Assembly (NCBI GenBank): GCA_963768055.1 | Contig: CAVYGN010000001.1 | Location: 53,590-117,589, forward strand | Direction of reading: 5' to 3' | Source: an uncultured Spirochaetota bacterium | GTDB taxonomy: Bacteria; Spirochaetota; Brevinematia; Brevinematales; JAOACQ01 | DNA length: 64,000 bases | In this document: piece after piece, positions 6,331-19,656 of the stretch | Position numbering within the stretch: the first letter of the stretch is position 1 | How the letters are laid out: every line of letters starts with the position of its first letter | Program-made: the position numbers and the translations under genes | Notes under the pieces: model-generated | What the model saw: only the letters and a program-made list of their open reading frames with translations | Databases searched by the model: none | What the model was told of the DNA's origin: nothing

Positions 6331-6975
6331 ATGTCTCCGAGAACTAAAGAGGCGAATGAGCAGATCCGGAGCGGCCGCAGGGAGCAGATACTCAGGGCTG
6401 CAATGAGGGTATTCGGCAGGAGAGGACTTGCAGCGGCTAAGATCAGCGATATAGCTTCTGAAGCCGGTTTCAGCCACGGTCTGGTTTACAATTACTTCGG
6501 GTCGAAGGATGAAATTTTCACGGAGCTGGTCAGGCGGGCAATGGATTTTTCCATTGGCATAATTTCAGCTGCAGTTCAGGCCGAAGGGTCTGCCTGGGAC
6601 CGCATAAAGCGGATAACTGAAACTATAGTTAACGGAGCCTACCGGGGCGACGCCCCGTATTATTTTCTGATCATTATCCAGGCGTTCACATCCGATGCCG
6701 TTCCCCCTGAAAGCAAGGAGATTTCATCAAAGCAGTCCATTCTTTTCAATAAGTATATGGTCCCCCTGATAAGGGAAGGCCAGGAATCCGGGGAGATAGC
6801 TCCCGGCTATCCGGAGGAACTGTCGATGGCCTATTTCGCACTTATACAAGGGCTGGCAATAATGAAAATACAGGGCGGCGAATCGATGCCCGATCCGTCC
6901 CCCGATATTGTCCTGCGCCTGCTCCGCAACGGCCGTACCCCGGCCGTTGAATCAAATATAAGGAGGCTTAAATGA
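6331..6975 (+). CDS. TetR/AcrR family transcriptional regulator
   Basis: N-terminal HTH RREQILRAAMRVFGRRGLAAAKISDIASEAGFSHGLVYNYFGSKDEIF. Confidence 0.9.
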   Translation: MSPRTKEANEQIRSGRREQILRAAMRVFGRRGLAAAKISDIASEAGFSHGLVYNYFGSKDEIFTELVRRAMDFSIGIISAAVQAEGSAWDRIKRITETIVNGAYRGDAPYYFLIIIQAFTSDAVPPESKEISSKQSILFNKYMVPLIREGQESGEIAPGYPEELSMAYFALIQGLAIMKIQGGESMPDPSPDIVLRLLRNGRTPAVESNIRRLK

Positions 6976-7548
6976 TAAAGAATATTATCGAATATGCGGC
7001 TATGATCTACGGGGCAATGGAAATTGCTTATGGGATAACAAGCCGGATCAGGAGCGGCAATGTTTCAAAAAATAACAAGGACAAAGGAAGCTTTGTGCTG
7101 AATCTTTTATTCTTAGGGATAGGGTTCACTATTTCTCTCGGGATTTATTTAGGGGGTTCCGGGGGCCCTGATGTTCGCCGATGCGGTTTATCCCTTTGCT
7201 GCGGGTGCGGCTATCGTCATTATAGGCTTCATTGTAAGGGCCGCTGCAATACTGACCTTAAACCGGCAATTCACATTCTCTGTTCAGATCTTCGACTCTC
7301 ACAGGCTCTATGATTCCGGGATATACCGGTATATAAGGCACCCTTCCTACCTTGGAATAATTCTCATAACAACGGGGTTCGGCCTGGCGATGAACAGCTG
7401 GATCTGCCTTGGCATCCAGGTGCTGATCAATTTTATACCCATGATCTATCGGATAAATGTCGAGGAAAAAGCCCTTATTGAAAAATTCGGGGCTTCGTAT
7501 TCGGATTATATGAAGAAGACAAAAAGGCTTGTGCCTTTTATATACTAG
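6972..7548 (+). pseudogene. isoprenylcysteine carboxyl methyltransferase family protein, frameshifted
   Basis: Overlapping ORFs 6972..7313 and 7171..7548 offset by +1 at G5 runs (7152-7165); C-terminal GIYRYIRHPSYLG and RINVEEKAL motifs. Confidence 0.8.
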
Positions 7549-13846: not shown

Positions 13847-15106
13847 TTATGCATTACCGGGAGATGCGTTCCTTTGCTTTTTATTGGGATCGGCAAAAAA
13901 AAGCATTGAAAGCATCAATAAAACCCCGATGCCGATCGTTATAAAACATATTCTGATCCCGAAAGCCTGGCTTAGCCCCCCCGCTATCAGGTTTCCGATA
14001 GGCGTTGTCCCGGCATTAACAAGCAGATAGACGCTGATTACCATGCTTCTGTATTCATCGCTCGATTTTATTTGAAGAGTTGAATTAGCTGAAGTAAAAA
14101 ATGAAGATGTTATAAACCCGGTAAGAGCCAGTAAAAAAGATGATAACACCAGATTGGCGTTCAAGCCGATAATAATAAAAATTACTGAAACAGCGAAACC
14201 CGCGCCGGTCAGTACAAAATTTTTAGGCCCATGTTTGCTTCTGGAGGCTATAAAAAGAGCTCCGGAAAGAGAGCCCGCCCCCATGCAGGACCATAAAAAG
14301 CCCAATCCCTGTTCTTTCTGGTGAAGGCCGGCTTTAGCCAGGACAGGCATAAGGACATTAAAATTCATAATAAATGTGCCTATGATAAAAACTGAAATGA
14401 CAGTCTTCAGGAGAATTTTATTTGAAAAAATATATTTTAACCCGTTGTAAATATTACTCAGAATATTAGAGCTGCCTGCCTCTTTCCTGTAACTGAAAAT
14501 CGGCACTATAAAAAACATCCCGGCAATTAAAGGCAGAAAACTAAGGGCGTTTATCAGGAAACACCATCCTATCCCTAAACCGGCCATCAATAACCCTGCT
14601 ATGGCAGGGCCGACGATACGCGCCCCGTTATGGACAGCGGAATTAAGGCCGATTACGTTCATTAAATCGCCTTTTCCGATCATTTCAATGATAAACGACT
14701 GCCGGGCGGGAAAATCTATAGCGCTGATAGAACCAAGCGCCAATGACAAAATAACCAGGTGCCAGTACTGGATCAGGCGGGAAAAAACAAGGAAAGCTAA
14801 AATAAAGGCGATCACAGCCTGGGCGCTCTGGGTAAAAATTATTATTTTCTTTTTTTCATACCTGTCTATCGCAGCGCCTGCAAAAAGGGAAAAGAACATA
14901 ACGGGCAAATACTGCATTGCCCCGACAACTCCCAGCAGGAAAGCGGAGCCTGTGATGGAATAAGCAAGCCAGGGAAGGCTTATTGTCTGCATCCAGCTTC
15001 CTATCTGGGAAATTACCTGCCCTGAAAAGAATATCCTGTAATTTATGTGGCTTAAGGAATGAAATGATTTTTTTAATTTTCCAATTAATAGATATATATT
15101 AAACAT
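13847..15106 (-). CDS. MFS transporter (MFS_3 / transmembrane secretion effector type)
   Basis: NYRIFFSGQVISQIGSWMQ, IDFPARQSFI, GLNSAVHNGARIVGPAIAG; about 12 TM segments. Confidence 0.9.
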   Translation of the reverse strand: MFNIYLLIGKLKKSFHSLSHINYRIFFSGQVISQIGSWMQTISLPWLAYSITGSAFLLGVVGAMQYLPVMFFSLFAGAAIDRYEKKKIIIFTQSAQAVIAFILAFLVFSRLIQYWHLVILSLALGSISAIDFPARQSFIIEMIGKGDLMNVIGLNSAVHNGARIVGPAIAGLLMAGLGIGWCFLINALSFLPLIAGMFFIVPIFSYRKEAGSSNILSNIYNGLKYIFSNKILLKTVISVFIIGTFIMNFNVLMPVLAKAGLHQKEQGLGFLWSCMGAGSLSGALFIASRSKHGPKNFVLTGAGFAVSVIFIIIGLNANLVLSSFLLALTGFITSSFFTSANSTLQIKSSDEYRSMVISVYLLVNAGTTPIGNLIAGGLSQAFGIRICFITIGIGVLLMLSMLFFADPNKKQRNASPGNA

Positions 15107-15145
15107 ATAATAACCGGCGAAGCAGCCGTCAAAGCGTTACCGCTG

Positions 15146-15178
15146 CTACCGCTTTTTTAGCGAGTCCGCCGATAGCAT
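15146..15178 (-). other. candidate 10-aa leader peptide MLSADSLKKR in a structured 5' UTR
   Basis: GAAGGGA precedes TTG-ATG; the ORF lies inside nested inverted repeats (CGGCG/CGCCG, AGCAGC/GCTGCT). Confidence 0.3.
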
Positions 15179-15341
15179 CAATCCCTTCTATTGATATTAC
15201 AATTACGCAGTACGTAAATGTTATTATAATAATATATTTGATATAATAGCTTGTCAAGGTACATGTTTATATCAAAGGGTGATTCTGCAAGTATTGATAT
15301 GTGAGGCGGCAGGATTTTTATCCCGAAAAAGAAAATTAGTA

Positions 15342-15394
15342 TTGACAATGTAATTATTTTAAGCTATAGTTTACATATGACCGGGCGGTCATAT
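15342..15394 (+). promoter_or_regulatory. sigma70 promoter and perfect palindrome at the predicted start site
   Basis: TTGACA(15342)-17 bp-TATAGT(15365); ATATGACCG-GG-CGGTCATAT at 15375-15394. Confidence 0.7.
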
Positions 15395-15516
15395 TATTTA
15401 AAAAATTTTAATGAAAGTTGACGAGAATACTATTTTTAGTTTAACATAACAGCATCAAGTCATGAAAATCAGGCTTTGATGCCGGCCCGGTCGAGTATAA
15501 GCGGAAGGGGATAGTT

Positions 15517-15633
15517 ATGTCTCAAATACTTTTTAATCCGGCATTAAATTGTTTTAGAAACATTCCTGTTTTCTCGGGATGCAAGTTCTGGATCAAAGGG
15601 ATTCCCTTCTCCGAGCCTCCCAGTCCCAAATAA
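15517..15633 (+). CDS. 38-aa proline-rich leader peptide candidate
   Basis: AAGGGG RBS; MSQILFNPALNCFRNIPVFSGCKFWIKGIPFSEPPSPK*; 6 Pro, 4 of them in the last 9 residues. Confidence 0.6.
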   Translation: MSQILFNPALNCFRNIPVFSGCKFWIKGIPFSEPPSPK

Positions 15634-15689
15634 CCAAAATTCCATACCGGTTCTAATCGCAATTAAGACGGTTATACAGGAGGCTGATC

Positions 15690-16964
15690 ATGCGCTTTTG
15701 GGACAAATTATATTTCAATCTGAAAAGATATTTCAAATCGATTCAATTATTTCTGATCATAAGCGGTCCGGGTATCATTGTTATGATGGCCGATAACGAT
15801 GCGGGCGGTATTACGACTTATGCCGCCACTGGAGCGAAATACGGTTATCATCTGATCTGGTTTATGATCCTGCTTTTTCCCGTGGCTTATTACGTACAGG
15901 AAATGACCGTAAGGTTAGGCGCGGTAACGAAGCATGGCCATGCCGAAGCGATATTCAGCGCGTTCGGCCCCTTCTGGGGCTGGTTTTCTCTGATCAACCT
16001 GGGTATTGTCGACTGGCTCACCCTTGTAACGGAATTCATTGGCATGACCGCGGCTATGAGCATTTTCCACGTTGCGCCCCTTATAACGATTGCCATCGTG
16101 ATCGTTATCATGGGTATTATGATCATTCAGGGGCGCTACTGGACCTGGGAAAAGATCGCTATCGCCTTTTCGATATTGAACGTCATATACATTCCAGCCT
16201 GTATTATGGTCAAACCGAGCGTTTCGGATATAATCAGGATAGGCCTTATACCCCATTTCCCCGGCGGATTTAATGTCGATATCTTCTTTTTTATCATGGC
16301 TAATATCGGCACTACTATAGCTCCCTGGATGATTTTCTTCCAGCAGAGCGCGGTTGTAGACAAGGGGATGCAGGAAAAGGACATCCCCTGGGGCAAATTC
16401 GACACCTTAAACGGCGCGGCATGGACGGTCATAGTCGCAATAGTTATTATTATCGCTGCAGGTACGGTTCTTCTCGGCCAGCCTATCGATAACGCCGCCC
16501 AGGCGGCCCTTGTGCTGATGAAGACCAATCAATGGGTCGGGACAATGATTGCAATCGGACTTTTCGATGCGGGTTTATTGGGCGCAATATGCATTTCGCT
16601 TGCGACCTCATGGGCTTTCGGGGAAGTATTCGGCTGGGCGCATTCGCTCAATAAAAAGGTTAAAGAAGCGCCCTGGTTTTACGGCGCTTATTTTATTCTT
16701 CTCTCATCGGCAGCCGCTGTGGTTCTTATCCCAAACGCTCCCCTTGTGCTGATAACTCTTTTTGTCCAGGTCGTTGCCGTGACCCTTCTCCCCGCGGCGC
16801 TGGTATTCCTGATCCTGCTGTTAAACGATAAAAAACTTATGGGAAAACACGCCAATACGCCCCTCGAGAATATTATTAATATCACTATTGTATCAATCAT
16901 CATTGTAATATCTACGCTTTACGGGATAAGCGCGATTTTCCCCGAATTTTTTGCGGTTAAATAA
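15690..16964 (+). CDS. Nramp-related divalent metal transporter (Mg2+-type clade)
   Basis: DNDAGGITTY in TM1 instead of MntH-type DPGN; GTTIAPWMIFFQQS; adjacent MgtE-like gene. Confidence 0.85.
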   Translation: MRFWDKLYFNLKRYFKSIQLFLIISGPGIIVMMADNDAGGITTYAATGAKYGYHLIWFMILLFPVAYYVQEMTVRLGAVTKHGHAEAIFSAFGPFWGWFSLINLGIVDWLTLVTEFIGMTAAMSIFHVAPLITIAIVIVIMGIMIIQGRYWTWEKIAIAFSILNVIYIPACIMVKPSVSDIIRIGLIPHFPGGFNVDIFFFIMANIGTTIAPWMIFFQQSAVVDKGMQEKDIPWGKFDTLNGAAWTVIVAIVIIIAAGTVLLGQPIDNAAQAALVLMKTNQWVGTMIAIGLFDAGLLGAICISLATSWAFGEVFGWAHSLNKKVKEAPWFYGAYFILLSSAAAVVLIPNAPLVLITLFVQVVAVTLLPAALVFLILLLNDKKLMGKHANTPLENIINITIVSIIIVISTLYGISAIFPEFFAVK

Positions 16965-16976
16965 GGAGGGTTTATA

Positions 16977-17153
16977 ATGCTGCGAATGATTAACGGGTTT
17001 TTAAAAAGCATATCGGAAATAAATAAGAAGTATAAAACCCCTACCATAAAGATAACGCCGATGGTCAGGTTTTCTCTCTTTATTCTCCGCATGTATCTGT
17101 TAATACTTGTCGGATTATTGGTATTCCGATTCATTACTCTATTGCATAAATAG
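16977..17153 (+). CDS. 58-aa single-TM protein (not in ORF track)
   Basis: AAGGAGG RBS; MLRMINGFLKSISEINKKYKTPTIKITPMVRFSLFILRMYLLILVGLLVFRFITLLHK*; fills the operon gap; its TAG overlaps the next RBS. Confidence 0.8.
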   Translation: MLRMINGFLKSISEINKKYKTPTIKITPMVRFSLFILRMYLLILVGLLVFRFITLLHK

Positions 17154-17163
17154 GAGGTTTTTC

Positions 17164-18444
17164 ATGAACGATATAAATAAAAAAGATATGCGGCCTGAGC
17201 CTAAGAGGCCGGAGCCGGAAAAGAGCTTTTTACTGAGCGAGATAAAAGACATACCCGTTTATAACGGCGTAAAGCGGATAGGCAGGCTTTCGGATATGAT
17301 CGTCCAGGAATACGCTACGATTCCGCATATCACTCATTTTATTATAAAAAGGCCCTTCGGCTATCCGAAGCTGCTCATTCCAATGGCTAAAATGCTGTCT
17401 ATCGGCCTTAAAAGCCTTCGTTTTGAGCTGCCCTCCCTGGATGAATATGAAAAAGAGCCAGAACCCGGCGACATGCTCCTTCGGGACTATATTCTCGATA
17501 AAAAAGTGATCGATATGGACGAACATGAAGTATCGGTAGTCTACGATGTGAAGATCATCCAGGTGAATAAAAAGCTCTATGCAAGCGATGTCGACTTCAG
17601 CCACTACGGATTTTACAGGCGTCTGCATATGAAATGGCTTGCCGGGATATTGAATATCAAAGAGGACCTGTTATCCTGGAAATTCGTTCAGCCGCTGCCT
17701 GGGAACCTCAGCAGTTTCAAAGGCGATATCAAGCTGACGGCTTTGAAAGAAAAGCTTGCCGATATTTCTCCGGTCGATATGGCTGACATTATCGAGGAAT
17801 TGGACCGGGAACAGCGCGCCGCAGTCTTCCAGGAAATGCCCACGGAACAGGCTTCGGACACCCTTGAAGAGCTCGAACCCAGCGTCCAGCGCGAGGTGGT
17901 TTCTTCACTTAAAAAAGAAACTGTCGCCCAGCTTATAAATGATATGACCCCCGCGCAGGCTGCCGATGTCCTGGCGGTTATTTCACTTTCGGAAAAAGAA
18001 TCGATTATGCAGCTTGTTGAAAAAGATATGGCATTGAAGATACAGGCCATTCTTGACAGGCAGGAAGAAAACATCCTTAATTTCACTACCGCCAGTTTCC
18101 TTAAATTCGGCCCGCATGAAATTGCAAGAGATGTCCGTAAATTATACCAGAAAAAGGCCCGCGACATGGATGTGATCATGTATCTTTATGTGGTCGACCC
18201 TGAAGATAAGCTCCTGGGAGTACTGGACATCAAAGAACTATTAATTGCGGAAGATGGAGCGCTTCTTTCGGAAATAATGACTGAAGGAATAATAAATTTG
18301 AACCCTGACAGCACGCTGCATGACGCATCCGATCTGTTCGACCGCTATAGTTTCAGGGCCCTGCCCGTATTGGACGCCGATGGGAAAATTCAAGGCGTCG
18401 TTCCCTACAGGGATGTAATGGAATTGAAACACCGGTTTTTATAG
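17164..18444 (+). CDS. soluble MgtE-like protein (PRC-barrel-like, MgtE N-domain, CBS pair; no TM domain)
   Basis: KLADISPVDMADIIEEL, YLYVVDPEDKLLGVLDIKELL, FRALPVLD. Confidence 0.85.
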   Translation: MNDINKKDMRPEPKRPEPEKSFLLSEIKDIPVYNGVKRIGRLSDMIVQEYATIPHITHFIIKRPFGYPKLLIPMAKMLSIGLKSLRFELPSLDEYEKEPEPGDMLLRDYILDKKVIDMDEHEVSVVYDVKIIQVNKKLYASDVDFSHYGFYRRLHMKWLAGILNIKEDLLSWKFVQPLPGNLSSFKGDIKLTALKEKLADISPVDMADIIEELDREQRAAVFQEMPTEQASDTLEELEPSVQREVVSSLKKETVAQLINDMTPAQAADVLAVISLSEKESIMQLVEKDMALKIQAILDRQEENILNFTTASFLKFGPHEIARDVRKLYQKKARDMDVIMYLYVVDPEDKLLGVLDIKELLIAEDGALLSEIMTEGIINLNPDSTLHDASDLFDRYSFRALPVLDADGKIQGVVPYRDVMELKHRFL

Positions 18445-18795: not shown

Positions 18796-19656
18796 GTGTC
18801 GGTTAAATCAAGGGCGATATTCCTCGCGGTTTTATCGGATATTTTATTGATAGTCATAAAAACCGGGGCCGGTATTTTCAGCGGTTCTGTCAGTTTATTA
18901 TCGGAAGCCGTACATTCGGGAATGGACATGGTTTCATCGATAATTAATTTCCTTTCAGTAAGAGTGTCGGATAAACCACCGGATGAGAGCCATCCATACG
19001 GTCATCATAAGTTCGAGGATATGTCGGGACTTCTCGAATCGATCCTCCTTTTGTTCGCTTCCGGGTCAATTATTTATGAGGCGATAATCAGGCTTAAAAA
19101 TTTGAAAGAAATCAGTATGCCGTCCCTTGGCCTGGCTGTTATGGTTTTTTCTTCCCTTCTGAATCTTGCGCTCTCTTTTCACTTTTCCAATGTAGCTAAA
19201 AAAGAAAGCTCAATCGCCCTTGAAGCCGAGGCTTTAGACAAAAGGGCCGACATAATTTCCACAGCGGGTGTAGGGGTCGGCTTTATTCTCATATGGCTCT
19301 TCAAGCTCTATTATGTCGACCCAATTCTTGCAATAATAATTGCCCTGTACATATTGAGGGGAGCGGTTTCGCTTTTTATCAAGGTGGTTAATCCCCTGAC
19401 CGACTCAAGCCTTTCAAAAAAAGATATTATAATTATCAAGGAAGTATTAAATAACAACTCCGATTATATATTTGATTATCATGACCTGAGGACAAGGGGG
19501 GACGGCATCACCAGGTATATTGATATGCACATCACGCTTCCGGATAATATGACGATCCATCGCGGCCATGACATCGCCAATAAAATTGAAAAGGAAATCG
19601 AAAGCAGGCTTAAAAACACCCAGGTCCTTATCCATATGGAGCCGAAAGAGGGTTAA
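18796..19656 (+). CDS. cation diffusion facilitator (FieF/CzcD family)
   Basis: SEAVHSGMD, PPDESHPYGHHKFE, C-terminal HDLRTR..HMEP. Confidence 0.9.
   Translation: MSVKSRAIFLAVLSDILLIVIKTGAGIFSGSVSLLSEAVHSGMDMVSSIINFLSVRVSDKPPDESHPYGHHKFEDMSGLLESILLLFASGSIIYEAIIRLKNLKEISMPSLGLAVMVFSSLLNLALSFHFSNVAKKESSIALEAEALDKRADIISTAGVGVGFILIWLFKLYYVDPILAIIIALYILRGAVSLFIKVVNPLTDSSLSKKDIIIIKEVLNNNSDYIFDYHDLRTRGDGITRYIDMHITLPDNMTIHRGHDIANKIEKEIESRLKNTQVLIHMEPKEG

Follow-up and report, generated by a model that had tools for sequence, protein, structure and literature searches.

How is the gene of an Nramp-related transporter of the NRMT type controlled where no M-box riboswitch stands before it, and what does a short reading frame in its leader contribute? 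This question is raised by a 64,000-nt stretch of DNA (the window) from the genome of an uncultured bacterium of the Brevinematales, Spirochaetota (G000, 94.75 % complete), in which an upstream open reading frame (uORF) precedes such a gene. The window was compared with a sister species (G001) and with further loci, designated by L-numbers. The results indicate that the uORF is translated and that its peptide is itself under selection. We propose that it encodes a cis-acting leader or arrest peptide which would pause the ribosome and so unmask the NRMT gene's Shine-Dalgarno (SD) sequence. To this whole chain we give a probability of roughly 40 %. That the uORF is a cis-regulatory leader peptide of some kind appears rather probable, an output through SD unmasking is a tentative assignment, and Mg2+ as the signal, to which the association with this transporter family points, is rather doubtful. 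The elements in question are the following.

15503..15510, + strand: SD sequence of the uORF, GGAAGGGG, 6 nt 5' of the ATG, conserved
15517..15633, + strand: leader open reading frame of 38 codons, MSQILFNPALNCFRNIPVFSGCKFWIKGIPFSEPPSPK and stop, ATG at 15517 and TAA at 15631-15633, intact in four of four independent copies
15559..15609, + strand: peptide core NIPVF(S/Y)GCKFWIKGIPF, codons 15-31, under strong purifying selection
15613..15621, + strand: Glu-Pro-Pro codons GAG CCT CCC, candidate diprolyl pause site, S(E/D)PPS in three of four copies
15614..15620, + strand: candidate anti-SD AGCCUCC, exact complement of 15679-15685, its conserved part CCUCC lying inside the invariant CCTCCCAG
15630..15675, + strand: inner helix AUAACC (15630-15635) / GGUUAU (15670-15675) within the anti-SD/SD helix, present in the minimum-free-energy fold
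15679..15685, + strand: GGAGGCU, SD region of the NRMT gene, unchanged between the window, G001 and L033
15690..16964, + strand: Nramp-related transporter of the NRMT type, 424 aa, helix 1 containing DAGG and helix 6 containing GTTIAPW (Pfam Nramp, E 9e-71)

The predicted 5' leader before the NRMT gene is about 315 nt long. The stop of the uORF and the start of the NRMT gene are separated by 56 nt, and the GGAGG of the gene lies 6 nt 5' of its ATG (15690). A first-pass annotation of this DNA had reported a uORF of 38 aa with a ribosome-binding site (RBS), together with the complementarity of AGCCTCC (15614-15620) in its Glu-Pro-Pro (EPP) codons to GGAGGCT (15679-15685); all positions and the complementarity hold.

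The leader was compared in four independent copies, which come from two or three closely related uncultured species. Besides the window these are the copy of G001 (L002/L009), found identical in a metagenome contig (L010); a further independent copy, L033, on a metagenome contig found via cluster members; and a relic copy in the genome of the window itself (G000:C1:about 6950-7500, or L019 440-1010), whose uORF is at G000:C1:7119-7235. One more locus, L032, is the same strain as the window (1 mismatch in 6275 nt) and was not counted separately. In the relic copy a deletion fuses the end of the uORF to what is left of a diverged Nramp paralogue (81 % identity), namely codons 35-123, after which the paralogue stops short. 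The neighbours of this copy are an HU-like gene and a CDF efflux gene, the latter with its 3' end. Promoter, palindrome, strong RBS and open reading frame are retained in all four copies, the uORF SD being GGAAGGAG in the three others (relic, G001, L033). The peptide reads MSQILKPVLNYFRNIPVFSGCKFWIKGIPFSEPPSKPY and stop in the relic copy, MFQIKPVFNFYKNIPVFSGCKFWIKGIPFSDPPSSPEKL in L033 and MYLIKPVYNFYKNIPVFYGCKFWIKGIPFWRPSQ in G001.

The distribution of substitutions along the uORF was then considered. Codons 2-14 evolve nearly neutrally. In the core (codons 15-31), 10 of the 17 codons vary synonymously among the four copies, with a single amino-acid change (S20Y). Pairwise nonsynonymous difference (pN) in the core is 0-0.02 versus a synonymous difference (pS) of 0.4-0.8, and the differences at codon positions 1, 2 and 3 are 0,0,6; 0,1,5; and 0,1,8 in the three pairs that do not involve L033. 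In the Nramp gene next to it, synonymous change is almost saturated (pS 0.66-0.83); that the core has stayed invariant is therefore due to selection and not to recency. From this coding pattern of substitution it follows that the uORF is translated and that its amino-acid sequence matters; a chance reading frame, considered as an explanation, is rejected by the same pattern in the four copies. The profile as a whole (variable N-terminus, conserved C-proximal block, end a few codons further on) is of the kind known from arrest peptides. In some arrest peptides the conserved residues lie in mid-tunnel and the residues near the catalytic centre are variable (PMC10987492). Behind the core, three copies (window, relic, L033) have S(E/D)PPS, written with the codons TCC/TCA, GAG/GAA/GAC, CCT, CCC and AGT/AGC. 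The first-pass annotation had placed the sensing function in EPP. An acidic residue followed by Pro-Pro is indeed kept in three of the four copies, but the strongest selection falls on the 17-residue core upstream of it, which that annotation had overlooked.

A second constraint appears to act on the RNA. The hexamer CCTCCC, and CCTCCCAG around it, is invariant in all four copies, and in G001 it is read in another frame; this invariance despite the change of frame suggests that the RNA is constrained as well as the peptide. In each of the three copies that still have the gene (window, G001, L033), CCUCC stands opposite the invariant GGAGGCU. A 7-mer complement containing the whole GGAGG, at 10-120 nt upstream, was found for only 7 of the 506 genes of the genome with a GGAGG SD (1.4 %). 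In the window the pairing extends over 7 bp, and its best duplex between SD and upstream sequence (-14.2 kcal/mol) ranks 8 of 506. The consensus fold obtained with RNAalifold retains the CCUCC:GGAGG helix, and in G001 a simulated ribosome footprint at the end of the uORF raises the predicted accessibility of the SD from 0.31 to 0.65. In the inner helix AUAACC/GGUUAU, three sequences could be compared: one pair has changed on both sides (C-G to U-A) and another is broken, too few events to count as covariation. We conclude from these comparisons that the anti-SD/SD pairing is conserved and plausible.

Several observations weigh against the proposed mechanism and account for the modest probability given above. 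An indel of 1 nt has turned SEPPS into WRPSQ and a stop in G001, so that Pro-Pro is lost and the core kept; this frameshifted tail is the same in two separate assemblies, of unchecked sample origin. In the relic copy the uORF is intact, with a core pN of 0, beside a destroyed transporter fragment with a pN of 0.12, which hints at a function of the uORF independent of the downstream gene. The pairing itself is reduced to 5 bp and a C-C mismatch in G001 and L033, where the duplexes (-10.8 and -9.8 kcal/mol) are unremarkable, being stronger than the median (-8.0) but short of the 5th percentile (-12.4). No covariation was found in the anti-SD/SD helix, all conserved pairs being invariant among the three sequences. 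For the SD of the window the predicted probability of being unpaired is 0.27, an ordinary value (rank 224 of 506); a simulated ribosome footprint on the anti-SD of the window leaves the SD closed (0.26 to 0.23-0.24); and local folds do not exceed those of shuffled sequence in stability (z -0.85 and +0.40). Two further points concern the metal: the genome also encodes an MgtA-type P-type ATPase (C2:267786-270398), and an NRMT homologue without M-box was reported to behave as a Mn2+ transporter (PMC4072509). Folds, accessibility and footprint models, taken as a possible thermodynamic proof of SD masking, did not yield one.

These results bear on the first-pass annotation as follows. It had cast the EPP codons as the anti-SD of the transporter gene: the complement is real and CCUCC:GGAGG is conserved, but the helix shows no covariation, shrinks to 5 bp in the relatives and leaves an SD of ordinary accessibility. 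It had suggested aligning the upstream regions of related operons for a conserved uORF and for anti-SD/SD covariation; such a comparison recovers the uORF in four copies and no covariation. Its proposal that blocking the anti-SD frees the RBS gains no support in silico on the window's own sequence, where the SD stays closed under the footprint; in G001 the SD opens.

The relic copy brings in another explanation, in which the uORF product is a free small protein acting in trans, for instance by modulating the transporter or metal homeostasis, and the overlap with CCUCC is incidental. Small proteins are common in Mg2+ and Mn2+ regulons (MgtS, MgtR, MntS). Selection at the peptide level shows translation and a role of the sequence, not a mechanism in cis, and the relic has kept its promoter, operator and RBS along with the uORF next to the truncated Nramp fragment; that SD masking is not thermodynamically distinctive points the same way. 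We nevertheless consider such a protein unlikely. MSQILFNPALNCF contains no signal or transmembrane segment, and no fold emerges for the peptide with AlphaFold2 (pLDDT 54, pTM 0.13). A profile of the peptide searched against 1.84 billion representative proteins found no real homologue, its one match being a spurious repeat protein, and the peptide matches no Pfam family. The selection profile, the invariance of CCTCCC even where the frame changes, and the position of the reading frame, always directly 5' of the NRMT gene, also argue against a product acting in trans.

A ribosome on the uORF could also act on transcription. In an MgtL-like control, the progress of the ribosome would decide whether Rho loads on a C-rich tract and terminates transcription before the NRMT gene. 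A candidate loading site overlaps the end of the uORF:

15601..15660, + strand: C-rich, G-poor tract (23 C and 6 G by base counts), possible Rho loading site

Rho is encoded in the genome, and no intrinsic terminator was found between the uORF and the NRMT gene; MgtL and CorA-type leaders follow the same logic (PMC4072509). The excess of C over G is weaker in G001, however (19 C to 12 G in 72 nt), and the 56 nt between uORF and gene are short for both loading and termination by Rho. The invariant element is moreover exactly an SD complement. Rho-dependent control is therefore judged quite improbable here.

Other layers of control were searched in the leader. The first-pass annotation had recognised no M-box, and this is borne out: Rfam gave no M-box or other family at E<=10 on the leader (14900-16000), and neither at gathering score on the whole window; the M-box model RF00380 has no match in the genome and 12 relatives, while control genomes gave matches; and the M-box is absent from nine related or orthologous loci. 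A new riboswitch in 15393-15500 was also considered and rejected. This stretch is unconserved in comparison with G001 and the relic copy and lacks about 50 nt in L033, so it holds no conserved element of the size of an aptamer. Upstream of it, two elements were recognised.

15342..15370, + strand: sigma-70-type promoter of the leader and NRMT operon, TTGACA-17-TATAGT, 11 of 12 consensus positions, function predicted
15377..15392, unstranded: palindrome ATGACCGGGCGGTCAT over the predicted transcription start, putative TetR-family operator, in four of four leader copies

The -35 box and the spacing of the promoter are kept in G001, the relic copy and L033. The palindrome, ATGACC-N4-GGTCAT in the four leader copies, had been overlooked by the first-pass annotation as an operator on the promoter. 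As a 14-16-mer it is met again as a tandem pair (G000:C2:1483326 and 1483359) in the interval that separates a TetR gene (G000:C2:1482579-1483196) from a LolA-like/ABC operon, and in the same place in four other genomes of the genus (L025, L026, L028, L030), the arrangement being present in every genome of the genus; the reversed pattern, used as a control, gave 0 matches. We infer that a TetR-type repressor may act on both the NRMT and the LolA-like/ABC promoters, which suggests a small TetR regulon including the NRMT operon in G000, G001 and L033.

With such an operator, the uORF could be a constitutive helper which senses nothing, keeping the leader unfolded or protecting the mRNA, and regulation would pass through the TetR-type operator and gating by the CBS protein of the operon. 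The operator is conserved, and common to the TetR-adjacent operon across the genus; NRMT operons of other lineages manage without this uORF, and one genome of the genus has a PadR gene upstream; and G001 tolerates the loss of Pro-Pro. A helper of this kind would however need no particular peptide. The near-invariance of 17 residues beside near-saturated synonymous change suggests a role of the nascent chain itself, and we regard a mere helper as distinctly unlikely.

We therefore return to the cis-acting leader peptide. In the mechanism that we infer, which includes stalling, its position, the SD switch and the Mg2+ signal, residues 15-34 would lie in the exit tunnel and the ribosome would slow down or arrest, either at (E/D)PP or where the reading frame ends. 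An Asp before Pro-Pro is a known stalling context, modulated by the upstream sequence (PMC4176338). A ribosome with Pro34 in its P site and Pro35 in its A site would enclose positions 15614-15620; the covered CCUCC would be unable to pair, and the RBS of the NRMT gene would be open. After fast clearance, or when the uORF is not translated, CCUCC would pair with the GGAGG about 60 nt downstream and initiation would be damped. Cytoplasmic Mg2+ or the capacity for translation would be the most plausible signal, given that acidic and Pro stretches are translated more slowly at low Mg2+, as in MgtL; proline supply and the activity of EF-P are alternatives. The TetR-type repressor site on the promoter would form a separate, transcriptional layer. 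A more specific version is conceivable, though doubtful: the nascent chain (17-22 residues) would serve as a sensor in the tunnel, making peptide bond formation at (E/D)-Pro-Pro dependent on free Mg2+ or another cation. If true, this would be the first ion-sensing arrest peptide, one that switches on an NRMT importer by uncovering its RBS, and a peptide sensor would replace the M-box in a lineage without M-box, CorA or MgtE channel.

The identity of the downstream gene bears directly on this signal. Helix 1 of the transporter reads MMADNDAGGITTY, with D-A-G-G giving DxxG instead of DxxN, and helix 6 reads NIGTTIAPWM, with T-T-I-A giving TxxA instead of AxxM, identical to EleNRMT in the alignment. 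The DxxG/TxxA signature defines the Mg2+-transporting NRMT clade, and EleNRMT carries both Mg2+ and Mn2+ (PMC8806188). The best solved structure is EleNRMT (7qia, E 1e-60); classical Nramps (MntH/DMT) match at 1e-14 or worse, and the transporter is far below the cut-offs of the NCBIfam MntH model. By its sequence the downstream gene can thus be classified as NRMT-type. A second full-length Nramp paralogue with 40 % identity (L007 1444-2724, G000:C1:about 950000) shows DAGS and AVIM in helices 1 and 6, respectively; keeping the Met typical of transition-metal Nramps, it is probably a Mn2+/Fe2+ importer. Two genes follow the transporter gene.

16977..17153, + strand: mini-protein of 58 aa, single helix, between the NRMT and MgtE-like genes, conserved in eight of eight orthologous loci
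17164..18444, + strand: soluble PRC-barrel + MgtE_N + CBS protein, an MgtE-like cytoplasmic fragment by its domain matches, without channel domain

The start of the second (ATG 17164) was fixed by comparison with G001. An MgtE-like fragment is a known partner of NrmT genes (PMC4072509), and the first-pass annotation, which had spoken of Nramp-related Mg2+ transporters and of Nramp-MgtE operons, is supported here: the DxxG/TxxA signature, the match to EleNRMT and the PRC + MgtE_N + CBS gene all agree with it. The mini-protein has one C-terminal hydrophobic helix and is 52-88 % identical in the orthologous loci, which belong to several phyla; it occurs in 0 paralogue loci. It matches no Pfam family and goes unmentioned in the NRMT passages that keyword searches brought up in PMC4072509 and PMC8806188. 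The genome has neither CorA (PF01544) nor the MgtE channel domain (PF01769). The gene of its MgtA-type ATPase has a consensus promoter and a leader of about 50 nt; the leader of the NRMT operon was sought before it and is absent, this short leader containing no uORF. A CDF cation-efflux gene (MntE/FieF-like) is found near the NRMT operon in the window (18796-19656) and in a locus of another phylum (L020 5459-6269), as well as on the relic side (L019 139-414). This recurrence hints at a pairing of import and export for a divalent metal.

The transporter and its leader differ greatly in their distribution. NRMT proteins 70-76 % identical are found across many phyla, and the leader is confined to one 90 % cluster. 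The proteins of this range come from Brevinematales, Chitinivibrionales, Betaproteobacteria, Magnetococcales, Planctomycetota, Omnitrophota, Bipolaricaulota and an archaeal record; such conservation of the subfamily suggests strong constraint, frequent horizontal transfer, or both. A DNA search in 43 genomes of the class found the leader only in G001 and in the relic copy. A degenerate CKFWIKGIPF pattern, searched in genome contigs and metagenome contigs, gave only G001 and its metagenome twin, and tblastn of the peptide in its own genome gave two copies only (window and relic). The two other NRMT orthologues of the genus, in G002 and G003, have no uORF, the leader of G003 being unrelated. In G002 (L003 1174-1482) a gene of 102 aa, PadR-like by eye, ends 19 nt before the NRMT start. 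Closely related genomes therefore use different regulatory solutions for the same NRMT operon. Four orthologous NRMT loci from other lineages (L020-L023) contain no homologous uORF, and a homologous uORF before the orthologues L003, L004 and L020-L023 was thus looked for and rejected. One of these loci, L022 (NRMT 73 % identical), has an orphan reading frame of 44 codons (2277-2411) with a strong SD, 90 nt 5' of the NRMT orthologue. It ends in SSGFDPPY and a stop, and its Asp-Pro-Pro codons again spell CCUCC. No homologues were found among 5.8 billion proteins, and its leader is weakly structured, with no stable structure; we record it as an anecdote only.

What would such a leader add to the known controls of Mg2+ transport? 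To our knowledge, Mg2+-responsive gene control has been described either through the M-box riboswitch or through enterobacterial leader reading frames (MgtL, MgtP, MgtQ) before genes of P-type ATPases, as well as for CorA. NRMT transporters were found through their M-boxes, and many NRMT operons have none. The present uORF is a concrete candidate regulator for operons of the latter kind, in which the sole conserved complement of the transporter SD would be hidden under a ribosome pausing there. If stalling is true, a new arrest peptide would be available outside the fields of secretion and antibiotic resistance, and with it a tool to ask whether ribosomes report Mg2+ directly. If the product is a small protein instead, it would be a new accessory factor of NRMT systems and, together with the 58-aa mini-protein, would make NRMT operons more complex than described.

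The closest system in logic is mgtQ of Salmonella, a reading frame of 8 codons whose translation releases the sequestered RBS of mgtB (PMC8092293). As in mgtQ-mgtB, a short reading frame with acidic residues lies just 5' of a Mg2+ importer gene, and a ribosome opens an RBS stem-loop, which here is proposed. The mgtQ frame lies between two genes, acts through ribosome-destabilising Asp/Glu codons and precedes a P-type ATPase gene, whereas the present uORF has 38 codons, a conserved core of 17 residues and a diprolyl motif, precedes an NRMT gene, has no sequence similarity to mgtQ and has a predicted function. MgtL, in the 5' leader of mgtA of Salmonella and E. coli, is alike in being a translated leader frame (translation being deduced here from substitutions) with acidic and Pro residues, here in three of four copies, and in standing before a gene for Mg2+ transport. 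Its translation is presumably slowed at low Mg2+, the acidic and Pro residues forming the Mg2+-sensitive element. MgtL has 17 residues and operates by Rho-dependent termination behind a PhoPQ-controlled promoter; the present peptide is longer, at 38, and its conserved part lies upstream of Pro-Pro. No homology to MgtL emerged from the profile search of 1.84 billion proteins or from Pfam, MgtL itself not having been aligned.

Among leader peptides that respond to small molecules, TnaC and SpeFL sense tryptophan and ornithine, mainly via Rho. They resemble the present case in being short (24-34 residues) and devoid of targeting signals, with a conserved chain in the tunnel and, as is proposed here, stalling that depends on a small cytoplasmic molecule; they differ in these effectors and in their mainly Rho-based output. 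We know of no ion-sensing arrest peptide of this kind. The M-box (ykoK) that precedes NrmT/MgtE-like operons (Shin et al. 2014, PMC4072509) controls transporters of this same family, again accompanied by the MgtE-like gene, and presumably answers the same Mg2+-responsive need. It differs in that the leader here would be read by a ribosome and not folded around Mg2+; as said, no M-box was found.

With SecM-secA, MifM, VemP and ErmCL the locus shares a conserved C-proximal segment, a Pro at the proposed stall site and a downstream SD that could pair with sequence under the stalled ribosome (PMC10987492). There is also a loose likeness between F-x5-WI-x-GIP here and FxxxxWIxxxxGIRAGP of SecM, which we take as a lead, not as evidence. 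The present peptide has no signal peptide or membrane anchor, and thus would not be a monitoring substrate released by force; the spacing of its motif is different, a metal transporter lies downstream, and its stalling is predicted. Membership in the SecM family proper was accordingly rejected, given the missing signal sequence, the motif spacing and a downstream gene that is NRMT and not secA. The first-pass annotation had called the switch apparently undescribed. Its principle is already known from mgtQ, MgtL, SecM, MifM and ErmCL, but the peptide family and its link to NRMT are new. Judged by the absence of homology and of a signal peptide, and by the different transporter, the locus is a member of none of these families. 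The novelty lies in a peptide family without homologues, in a long conserved core rather than a few special codons, and in the link to an NRMT operon in a lineage that has no M-box.

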